Origin: Escherichia coli
GTDB taxonomy: Bacteria; Pseudomonadota; Gammaproteobacteria; Enterobacterales; Enterobacteriaceae
DNA length: 64,000 nucleotides
Direction: 5' to 3' (one strand)
Assembly: GCF_003334255.1 (NCBI RefSeq)
Contig: NZ_QOWU01000020.1
Shown: positions 670 to 49,369 of the stretch, piece after piece
Position numbering within the stretch: position 1 is the stretch's first letter
Layout of the letters: each line of letters opens with the position of its first letter
The notes under the pieces: model-generated
Database searches by the model: none
The model's input: the letters and a program-made list of their open reading frames with translations, nothing else
Told to the model about the DNA's origin: nothing
Program-made: the position numbers and the translations under genes

Positions 670-1733
670 TACCTCTCCTCATTTTCAGCTTCGCGGCGCA
701 GCAGTTGCGCTTTACGCGACACGCCCCAGCGGTAACCGGAAAGTGTGCCATCACCACGGACCACCCGATGACAGGGTATTATGATAGCCAGCTTGTTGGC
801 GGCACAGGCGCTGGCAACGGCCCGTACCGCTTTCGGTTTGCCGATGGCGTTAGCCAGTTGCTGATAACTGACGGTTTCACCGCAAGGTATCGTGCGCAGT
901 GCCTGCCAGACTTGTTGCTGAAAAGCAGTGCCGCGAATGTCCAGCGGTAACGTCAGCGGCGTATCGCGTTGATTGAGGCTGGCGATCACTTCACGCACAT
1001 GTTGCTGAAACATCAGATCGGCAGGCGCGTTGTCGGCAGCGGGAAACATCTGCTGCAACTCGCTGATTAGTGTCGCGTCATCATCGCCCAGCAATATCGC
1101 GCAAATCCCCCGCTCGCTTTCTGCCACCAGGCAACGACCCAGCTCACAATCAGCCAGCGCGTAACGCACCGCCAGATTTTCGCCACCGTGACGGAATTGT
1201 TTAGCCGTCATGCCCAGCGTTTCGTCAGCTTTGCGATAGTAACTGCTGCTGTCGGGGAATCCGGCGTTAAGAATAGACGTCGTCACGCTCTCCCCTTTCG
1301 CCAGCGATTCGCGCAAACGGCGAGCGCGCCAGGCCTGTTGCCAGGCTTTAGGCGTCATTCCGGTAGTCGCTTTAAACAACCGATGTAGATGAAATGGACT
1401 CATCGCCACCTGGTCGGCTAAGGCTTCCAGCGTTACAGGCGTTTCCTGTTCCAGCAGTCGACACGCGTGGGTGATTTTATCCAACCGATGTTGCTGGGCA
1501 TTGGCTTTTTCTGGCTGACAACGTTTGCAGGGGCGAAAGCCAGCGGCGAGTGCCTCGCTGGCATTTGCGTAGAAGGAGACGTTTTCCCGCAAAGCATGTC
1601 TGGCGCGGCAAGACGGACGGCAAAAGATGCCTGTGGTACGCACGGCGAAAACGAATTCGCCGTCGGCATTCGGGTCGCGGGCTAAGACAGATTGCCAGCG
1701 TTGATCGTCAGTTAAGCATGTGGCTTTTTTCAT
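669..1733 (-). CDS. ada: Ada, O6-methylguanine-DNA methyltransferase and transcriptional regulator of the adaptive response
   Basis: 354-aa ORF matching Ada; its stop overlaps the alkB start (TAATG), the known ada-alkB operon arrangement. Confidence 0.95.
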   Translation of the reverse strand: MKKATCLTDDQRWQSVLARDPNADGEFVFAVRTTGIFCRPSCRARHALRENVSFYANASEALAAGFRPCKRCQPEKANAQQHRLDKITHACRLLEQETPVTLEALADQVAMSPFHLHRLFKATTGMTPKAWQQAWRARRLRESLAKGESVTTSILNAGFPDSSSYYRKADETLGMTAKQFRHGGENLAVRYALADCELGRCLVAESERGICAILLGDDDATLISELQQMFPAADNAPADLMFQQHVREVIASLNQRDTPLTLPLDIRGTAFQQQVWQALRTIPCGETVSYQQLANAIGKPKAVRAVASACAANKLAIIIPCHRVVRGDGTLSGYRWGVSRKAQLLRREAENEER

Positions 1734-48039: not shown

Positions 48040-48052
48040 ACTCCTTTCTGAT

Positions 48053-48085
48053 GCCCGGTAAGCATGTGGTTACCGGGCATTTTTG
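48053..48085 (+). terminator. Rho-independent terminator of glpABC
   Basis: Hairpin GCCCGGTAA-GCATGTGG-TTACCGGGC followed by ATTTTTG. Confidence 0.8.
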
Positions 48086-48231
48086 CGTACACGATTCCGT
48101 GCCCAATGTATGCGTTGCAACGCAGTGAAAATTCCTCTGAAAACGTCTCGCAAAGGCTGAAACTGGCAGATGTCAAAGGCCTGGGATAACCGTAATGTCG
48201 CGTCATCATAAATATCAGGTGACGGACAACC

Positions 48232-49131
48232 ATGACCGAATCAACAACCTCCTCCCCGCATGATGCGGTATTTAAAACCTTTATGTTCACACCCGAAACC
48301 GCACGGGATTTTCTCGAAATACATTTACCAGAACCACTGCGCAAGCTTTGCAACCTGCAAACCTTACGCCTGGAACCCACTAGTTTTATTGAAAAAAGTT
48401 TACGCGCTTACTACTCGGATGTTTTGTGGTCCGTGGAAACCAGCGACGGTGACGGCTATATCTACTGCGTGATTGAACATCAAAGCTCTGCAGAAAAGAA
48501 TATGGCTTTTCGGCTAATGCGCTATGCCACTGCCGCCATGCAGCGTCACCTGGACAAAGGCTATGACAGAGTCCCGCTGGTGGTGCCGTTGCTGTTTTAT
48601 CATGGCGAAACCTCGCCTTACCCGTACTCACTCAACTGGCTGGATGAGTTTGACGATCCGCAACTTGCCCGGCAGTTGTACACCGAAGCTTTTCCGTTGG
48701 TGGATATCACCATCGTACCTGACGATGAGATCATGCAACATCGGCGTATAGCTCTGCTGGAACTGATTCAAAAGCATATTCGCGACCGCGATTTAATCGG
48801 CATGGTCGACAGGATCACCACGCTTTTGGTTAGAGGCTTCACTAATGACAGCCAGCTACAAACACTGTTTAATTATCTGCTGCAATGCGGCGATACCTCC
48901 CGTTTCACCCGTTTTATTGAGGAGATTGCCGAACGTTCACCACTACAAAAGGAGAGATTAATGACTATTGCTGAACGGCTACGGCAGGAAGGGCATCAAA
49001 TTGGCTGGCAGGAAGGTATGCATGAACAAGCCATTAAAATTGCTTTGCGCATGCTGGAGCAGGGCTTTGAACGTGAGATTGTGCTGGCGACAACCCAACT
49101 CACTGATGCTGATATTCCGAACTGTCATTAA
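48232..49131 (+). CDS. rpnE: Rpn-family (transposase_31/PD-(D/E)xK) recombination-promoting nuclease YfaD
   Basis: 299-aa ORF matching YfaD. Confidence 0.88.
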
Positions 49132-49329
49132 AAGGAGAGATTAATGACTATTGCTGAACGGCTGCGGCAGGAAGGACATCAAATTGGCTGGCAGGAAGGT
49201 AAATTAGAAGGTTTGCATGAACAAGCCATTAAAATTGCTTTGCGCATGCTGGAACAGGGCTTTGATCGTGACCTGGTGCTCGCGGCCACCCAGCTAAGCG
49301 AAGCCGATCTGGCAGCGAATAACCACTAA
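48947..49329 (+). repeat. Tandem direct duplication of the yfaD 3' end that generates ypaA
   Basis: Copy 1 (48947-49130) and copy 2 (49131-49329) both begin AAAGGAGAGATTAATGACTATTGCTGAACGGCT; copy 2 carries a 15-nt insertion and a diverged tail. Confidence 0.9.
49144..49329 (+). CDS. ypaA: YpaA, small protein paralogous to the YfaD C-terminal domain
   Basis: 61-aa [22 protein letters not shown]...; preceded by AAGGAG Shine-Dalgarno. Confidence 0.75.
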   Translation: MTIAERLRQEGHQIGWQEGKLEGLHEQAIKIALRMLEQGFDRDLVLAATQLSEADLAANNH

Positions 49330-49369
49330 TTAACACAGGCCCACAGCCGATCCCCATGGGCCTTTGATA

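Follow-up and report, generated by a model that had tools for sequence, protein, structure and literature searches.

The rpnE (yfaD)-ypaA locus of Escherichia coli is, with high probability, a member of the Rpn gene-within-a-gene toxin-antitoxin/antiphage family, in which duplication of the S module, the 3′ segment of rpnE encoding a small C-terminal protein, gave rise to ypaA. The locus was analysed in a stretch of 64,000 nucleotides (contig NZ_QOWU01000020.1 of assembly GCF_003334255.1), referred to here as the window, and positions are those of the window unless stated otherwise. The feature is already known, having been published for exactly the rpnE-ypaA locus, and it represents no new kind of element. 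The anatomy, conservation and population polymorphism of the locus come from the present analysis, while the evidence for translation of both small proteins comes from the literature. We infer that RpnE-S and YpaA act as antitoxins, that RpnE-L is toxic, that the genes are co-transcribed and that RpnE has a role in defence. The features assigned to the locus are as follows.

48232..49131, plus strand: rpnE (yfaD), encoding RpnE-L (299 aa), an Rpn/YhgA-like PD-(D/E)XK nuclease and putative toxin
48947-49129, plus strand: copy 1 of the duplication, inside yfaD/rpnE and in frame
48950..48954, plus strand: Shine-Dalgarno sequence AGGAG of the internal start, 6 nt 5′ of the ATG, within the rpnE coding sequence
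48961..49131, plus strand: rpnE-S, an in-frame internal ORF of 56 aa (M244-H299 of RpnE), putative intragenic antitoxin
49130-49329, plus strand: copy 2 of the duplication, the ypaA copy
49133..49137, plus strand: Shine-Dalgarno sequence AGGAG of ypaA, 2 nt downstream of the rpnE stop codon TAA
49144..49329, plus strand: ypaA (rpnE-Ss), 61 aa, a free-standing second S module, assigned as an ORF and by homology to copy 1
about 49201..49212, plus strand: extra repeat unit KLEG (12 nt) in helix 1 of YpaA, absent from RpnE-S in the window
49337..49363, no strand assigned (minus-strand score): hairpin rich in G+C, lying between the convergent genes ypaA and yfaU, likely a shared terminator

Tandem duplication at the 3′ end of rpnE

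The repeat search detected two direct pairs at this locus, one of 72 nt (48947-49018 and 49130-49201; 97% identical, spacing 183) and one of 102 nt (49012-49113 and 49207-49308; 85% identical, spacing 195). Alignment with MAFFT showed that both pairs belong to a single co-linear head-to-tail duplication with one 12-nt indel. At the start of both copies, AAAAGGAGAGATTAATGACTATTGCTGAACGG contains an AGGAG Shine-Dalgarno (SD) sequence, followed after 6 nt by an ATG (48961 in copy 1 and 49144 in copy 2). A degenerate pattern for the shared 11-residue N-terminus matched only two sites in the 64 kb, one in each copy, with 0 expected, and BLASTP aligned RpnE-S and YpaA with 46/61 identical residues (75%). 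The sequence-only reading had described two direct repeats lying head to tail, each with an SD sequence followed by ATG, and had derived ypaA from a tandem duplication of the yfaD 3′ end; the repeat search and the alignment, together with the sequence of the starts and the identity of the two proteins, bear out both statements. Two of its details had to be corrected: the internal product, given as 61 residues, has 56, and the insertion in copy 2, given as five codons (KLEGL), comprises 12 nt, i.e. four codons (KLEG), with an additional M-to-L change. Tandem Repeats Finder reported no repeat at rpnE-ypaA, as expected, since a single pair of copies interrupted by an indel does not reach the threshold of the program.

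The two copies of the window gave a dN/dS of 0.21 by the Nei-Gojobori method, which indicates that purifying selection acts on both copies. Synonymous divergence between them was uneven along the module, with a dS of 0.18 over the first 19 codons and of 0.68 over the rest. The low dS of the head indicates either homogenisation of this part or constraint on it.

RpnE and its flanking regions

Judged by its sequence, RpnE is a member of the Rpn/YhgA-like recombination-promoting nucleases. The protein scored 699.5 bits against the NCBIfam equivalog NF007418 (cutoff 583), 422 bits against the RpnA model NF007361 and 173.5 bits against TIGR01784 (cutoff 52.1), and the Pfam family Transposase_31/YhgA-like (PF04754) spanned residues 8-209 with an E-value of 7e-88. 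The RpnA residues D11, D63, E82, Q84 and R94, which were found to be essential by mutagenesis (Kingston 2017), are all present in RpnE with unchanged numbering; D63, E82 and Q84 were placed by script (SDV at 62, IEHQ at 81), and D11 and R94 were located by eye from the translation. A phmmer search of full-length RpnE against the PDB yielded no match, and no model in PADLOC-DB v2.0.0 matched either RpnE or YpaA. In the published assays for recombination, toxicity and SOS induction, RpnE was the sole inactive protein among the five K-12 paralogues (Kingston 2017, PMC5350276). RpnE-S was probably co-expressed from the RpnE constructs of that study.

The gene is flanked by glpC upstream and by the convergent yfaU downstream, which is the arrangement of K-12, and over the locus the window matches strain G1/2 at 100% identity and K-12 W3110 at 99.8%. 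Just 3′ of glpC, a hairpin with a perfect 14-bp stem (ATGCCCGGTAAGCA / TGGTTACCGGGCAT) followed by TTTTTG was observed at 48051-48086, and this hairpin is likely to be the glpABC terminator. With a terminator after glpC, rpnE would have to be transcribed from a promoter of its own, located within 48090-48231.

Internal start and expression of the small proteins

The internal start codon of rpnE corresponds to M244, in the context PLQKERL-M244-TIAERLRQ. Its SD sequence and ATG were intact in 24/24 loci, three other Escherichia species included. In the literature, retapamulin-based profiling (Ribo-RET) showed in-frame internal initiation in all five rpn genes; the internal sites are apparently the major start of each, the internal product of rpnE was noted to be homologous to the independent gene ypaA, and synonymous-site conservation was raised around the internal start of yfaD (Meydan 2019, bioRxiv 10.1101/520783). 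Published Onc112 profiling likewise gives initiation peaks inside all five rpn genes, and for the paralogue rpnA, mutagenesis of the ribosome-binding site and internal start (RBS/iTIS) has been published. Chromosomal SPA tags detected all five RpnS proteins as well as YpaA, which was renamed RpnE-Ss (Zhong et al., PNAS 2023, PMC10400941). On the basis of the published ribosome profiling and SPA tagging, the SD sequence and ATG inside yfaD are a genuine internal start. Initiation at both ATGs, proposed earlier from the letters of the DNA, is thus positive in published profiling, with RpnE-S and YpaA both detected as tagged proteins.

The preprint by Meydan and co-workers gives the rpnE internal product and YpaA as “98% identical”; this figure was not reproduced with the proteins of the window (46/61, 75%). 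In K-12 W3110 the RpnE-S protein is the same as that of the window, and YpaA differs by a single residue (L44 in the window strain, Q44 in K-12) at a position that is already mismatched, so the value of 75% also holds there by inspection.

No consensus sigma-70 promoter for an S transcript was matched between 48000 and 49450, and a relaxed scan upstream of the internal start found only weak candidates (7 of 12). The duplicated unit begins 14 nt before the ATG, so that no separate promoter was copied for ypaA. As, in addition, the rpnE stop codon TAA (49129-49131) lies only 12 nt upstream of the ypaA ATG, ypaA is most likely translated from rpnE/rpnE-S mRNAs, with which it is probably co-transcribed.

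Structure and annotation of YpaA

YpaA showed no significant family in Pfam-A. As DUF4351 (PF14261) was not matched, the protein was classed with the C-terminal domain of Rpn proteins, on the basis of homology, and not under DUF4351. The listed homologues of YpaA all bear the precomputed family PF27070.1, although the Pfam-A search reported none for YpaA itself; PF27070.1 probably represents a more recent Pfam entry covering the Rpn C-terminal/RpnS domain. The best PDB sequence match of YpaA by phmmer was 7TH0, the crystal structure of RpnA-S (E 1.2e-3), with an alignment gap exactly at the repeat region. An AlphaFold2 model built with 22 homologues was of moderate confidence (mean pLDDT 75) and placed helices at residues 3-38, 42-49 and 53-58. 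With this model, Foldseek again returned 7TH0 as the top PDB hit (probability 1.00, TM 0.71 normalised by the target, E 0.07), and all other hits had E-values of 2 or more. YpaA is thus predicted to fold, as does RpnA-S, into a bundle of three helices, the first of which is long.

RefSeq labels at the locus are misleading for both genes. The name given to rpnE, “ISNCY family transposase”, conflicts with the published characterisation of the protein as a nuclease and toxin-antitoxin component. In 18/19 of the two-copy RefSeq loci fetched, PGAP lists ypaA among the pseudogenes (“incomplete; missing N-terminus”), with a feature that starts at the base following the rpnE stop (49132-49329 in the window); this label conflicts with the published detection of the protein.

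Copy number and repeat variation among E. coli genomes

The rpnE-ypaA locus was found in 5,421 of 5,426 complete E. coli genomes and was chromosomal in every case. The junction between copy 1 and copy 2, searched with a probe of 86 nt and counted as present at a coverage of at least 80%, occurred in 3,132 of the 5,426 genomes (58%). An assembly artefact, which had been named as a possible explanation of the repeat, was thereby ruled out. Matches to the 72-nt head numbered 8,237 in 5,417 genomes (1.5 per genome on average), and two-copy and single-copy loci both exist in the species. In at least one complete genome the head matched up to 4 places, which could reflect longer arrays, with three or more copies, or duplications of larger segments. 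The spans of the matches differed from that of the window by +24, +48, +60, +72 or +132 bp, or by -195 or -171 bp. This survey is new here but confirmatory.

From 23 E. coli loci that were fetched, every S module was extracted; 24 loci entered the wider conservation counts, and in every S-module copy of these the SD sequence, the ATG and the open frame were intact. The repeat region begins after residue 19, and all length changes among the 24 loci occurred in frame, in steps of 12 nt. Repeat units in the 23 E. coli loci included KIEG, WQEG, KLEG, LQEG, LQKG and KVEG, among others, and the number of units was 0, 1, 5, 6 or 8 in RpnE-S and 0, 1, 2, 4 or 6 in YpaA. The lengths of 236 database homologues likewise followed 57+4n. 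In the window, RpnE-S has no extra repeat and YpaA has one.

Many genomes are short by exactly 195 bp and have the N-terminal region of rpnE fused to a ypaA-type tail. The single-copy genomes E6, CFT073, UTME-10 and an O157-type strain all showed rpnE with such a tail, and their repeat blocks and tails match common ypaA alleles exactly, with KLEGLQEG plus IDRDQVLAATQLSEADLAANNH in CFT073 as an example. A ypaA-type tail and repeat block on a single-copy rpnE are the product expected of a crossover within the near-identical heads.

Two further observations were made in single-copy genomes. In E. coli UTME-10 (L023:2627-4865), an IS2 element interrupts the nuclease domain of rpnE; the S module downstream of it encodes 57 aa with a ypaA-type tail and has an intact SD sequence and ATG, and may be an orphan antitoxin left behind. 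Many single-copy genomes have a truncated yfaU (“aldolase/citrate lyase family protein”, partial) with yfaY directly behind it (L004:2276-2737, L023:4906-5367), and the rhamnonate genes, from yfaV onwards, appear to have been deleted beside the locus.

Polarity and age of the duplication

A pattern scan for the module was carried out with one genome per species; it was non-exhaustive, in that the main E. coli representative gave no match. The module was found in four Escherichia representatives, each with a single copy and with the hairpin that lies downstream of ypaA directly after it. In E. albertii, E. whittamii and Escherichia sp. MOD1-EC7003, this hairpin follows a single rpnE whose tail is of the ypaA type. 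At the nucleotide level, the ypaA tail of the window is 86-88% identical to the tails of E. albertii and E. whittamii, whereas the in-gene tail of copy 1 is 75-77% identical to these and about 80% identical to ypaA. Taken together with the shared downstream context, these identities imply that ypaA retains the ancestral-type tail and that the in-gene tail of rpnE is derived. The sequence-only reading, which had placed the diverged tail on ypaA, is thus reversed by the comparison with other Escherichia species.

Among E. coli strains, the tails of the two copies vary to a similar extent, with identities from 95.6 to 97.4% for copy 1 and from about 95 to 98% for ypaA. This suggests that the duplication predates the diversification of E. 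coli and that at least some of the single-copy strains are secondary collapses. A mosaic was found in the fourth representative, strain SCPM-O-B-8794, which is labelled “E. coli” and is a separate species representative (locus L025, about 1400-1650, minus strand). Its single-copy rpnE has a tail in which a block of copy-1-type sites is followed by copy-2-type sites, ending in EADLAANNH, and this mosaic directly documents recombination between modules of the two types. The proposal that the repeats are prone to expansion or collapse by recombination is therefore borne out as far as collapse is concerned, by the many genomes lacking exactly 195 bp and by the one mosaic tail.

Proposed mechanism and alternative readings

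Several of the properties used in the proposed mechanism were described for paralogues by Zhong et al. (PMC10400941). In the main text of that paper, the RpnS proteins of RpnA, RpnB, RpnC and RpnP2 are antitoxins that bind and neutralise the cognate full-length nuclease, RpnS blocking the toxicity, SOS induction and DNA cleavage caused by RpnL. Purified RpnA S protein blocked DNA cleavage in vitro and formed complexes with RpnA-L, and the structure of RpnA-S is a dimer of three-helix bundles. Helix 1 has hypervariable four-residue repeats, which start 8-20 residues after the initiating Met, and RpnC-L was neutralised only by S proteins with an equal number of repeats, one extra repeat abolishing cross-neutralisation. 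Protection against phage is shown there only for the plasmid-borne RpnP2. RpnE-S and YpaA appear in the main text with data on expression and with no antitoxin assay. The interaction between the small and the full-length protein, which had been put forward for YfaD, is accordingly a published mechanism for RpnA, B, C and P2 and applies to RpnE by analogy.

In the proposed mechanism, RpnE-L would act as a PD-(D/E)XK nuclease that carries a three-helix domain at its C-terminus, and the SD sequence and ATG at 48950-48963 drive separate translation of this domain as RpnE-S. Tandem duplication of the S module produced ypaA (RpnE-Ss), probably read from rpnE transcripts. RpnE-S, and possibly YpaA, may pair via the long helix 1 with the identical domain of RpnE-L and so keep the nuclease inactive, and by analogy with the paralogues, which partners pair would depend on how many four-residue repeats helix 1 contains. 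Recombination between the near-identical heads collapses the array and puts the ypaA module on the nuclease. Points that speak against the mechanism are the inactivity of RpnE in the published assays, the unequal repeat numbers of RpnE-S and YpaA, the negative searches for a consensus promoter and for a PADLOC model, and the RefSeq label of ypaA as a pseudogene.

A different role for the duplicate is conceivable, in which YpaA is not a redundant antitoxin but a module of different specificity, serving either as a stored swap cassette or as a decoy against non-cognate Rpn proteins. We regard this as unlikely, though it is the most probable of the alternatives. The repeat numbers of RpnE-S and YpaA were unequal in 20/20 two-copy genomes sampled, with 11 distinct combinations, and by the precedent of RpnC, where a single additional unit is decisive, YpaA may fail to neutralise the resident RpnE-L. 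However, chance alone, given the marginal distributions, would yield about 1.15 equal pairs in 20, and the probability of finding none is about 0.3, so that the mismatch is not statistically significant; the sampled genomes are moreover phylogenetically non-independent, and the mismatch is a lead and not a result. The specificity rule itself comes from RpnC only. A swap would be favoured by the 97% identity of the heads as compared with about 80% for the tails, which places crossovers preferentially upstream of the repeats, and the repeat blocks and tails of single-copy E. coli, identical to common ypaA alleles, would be its products; these alleles could, however, be a retained ancestral state and not collapses. 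More specifically, YpaA would be a non-cognate stored cassette, and recombination in the head would swap the C-terminal domain of the nuclease and the intragenic antitoxin together. To this specific form we give a rather low probability; the ancestral-type tail, present on ypaA and not on the in-gene copy, would be compatible with swaps having occurred repeatedly, and, if true, the locus would contain a built-in switch that diversifies a defence toxin-antitoxin pair.

It is improbable that the two small proteins, RpnE-S and YpaA, serve chiefly as DNA-binding regulators of the helix-turn-helix type, autoregulating rpnE for instance, and not as direct inhibitors of the nuclease. PGAP calls some copies “Rpn/YhgA-type helix-turn-helix domain-containing protein”, HHpred relates RpnS to helix-turn-helix motifs (noted in the main text of PMC10400941), and the fold search with the YpaA model returned a Trp-repressor-like protein and MepR as weak hits of second rank. 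These fold hits have E-values above 3, however, and the direct inhibition of cleavage by purified RpnA S protein, in complex with RpnA-L, argues for a nuclease inhibitor. The view of ypaA as a pseudogene fragment left without function by a partial duplication, for which its lack of a nuclease domain and the PGAP label in 18/19 two-copy loci speak, is hardly credible and was rejected, since the start and open frame are intact in 20/20 two-copy loci with indels only in multiples of 12 nt, dN/dS is 0.21, free-standing homologues are common, and a SPA-tagged protein and ribosome-profiling start peaks have been published. The reading of rpnE-ypaA as a toxin gene with an internal and a duplicated antitoxin thus remains the preferred one.

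Comparison with known systems

Internal starts of the arcB type (Meydan 2019) resemble that of rpnE in that a 3′-proximal in-frame start yields a C-terminal isoform, but they have neither a tandem free-standing duplicate nor a toxin-antitoxin logic. A closer parallel is the rpnC - rpnC-Ss pair, described in the main text of Zhong et al. for some E. coli strains, where the S module is likewise duplicated directly downstream of its parent rpn gene; this pair involves another paralogue and is of independent origin. RpnA-S (PDB 7TH0) shares with YpaA an identical 11-residue N-terminus and the three-helix bundle, in which helix 1 is long, but lacks the HQIGWQEG(KLEG)n segment, seen as a 12-residue gap in the alignment, and the identity between the two proteins is about 42-55%. 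The nearest systems are the RpnL/RpnS pairs of Zhong et al. (PMC10400941), which include the same gene pair under the names rpnE - ypaA/rpnE-Ss. As far as the main text of that paper goes, the internal start, the small C-terminal protein and the downstream duplicate are all described there as they are here, as are the variation in four-residue repeats and the loss by deletion or fusion. The window locus shows no difference in kind from this description, its YpaA being one residue off that of K-12. What makes the biology interesting is a putative antitoxin nested in the gene of its toxin and accompanied by a free duplicate, with a hypervariable repeat that may tune pairing.
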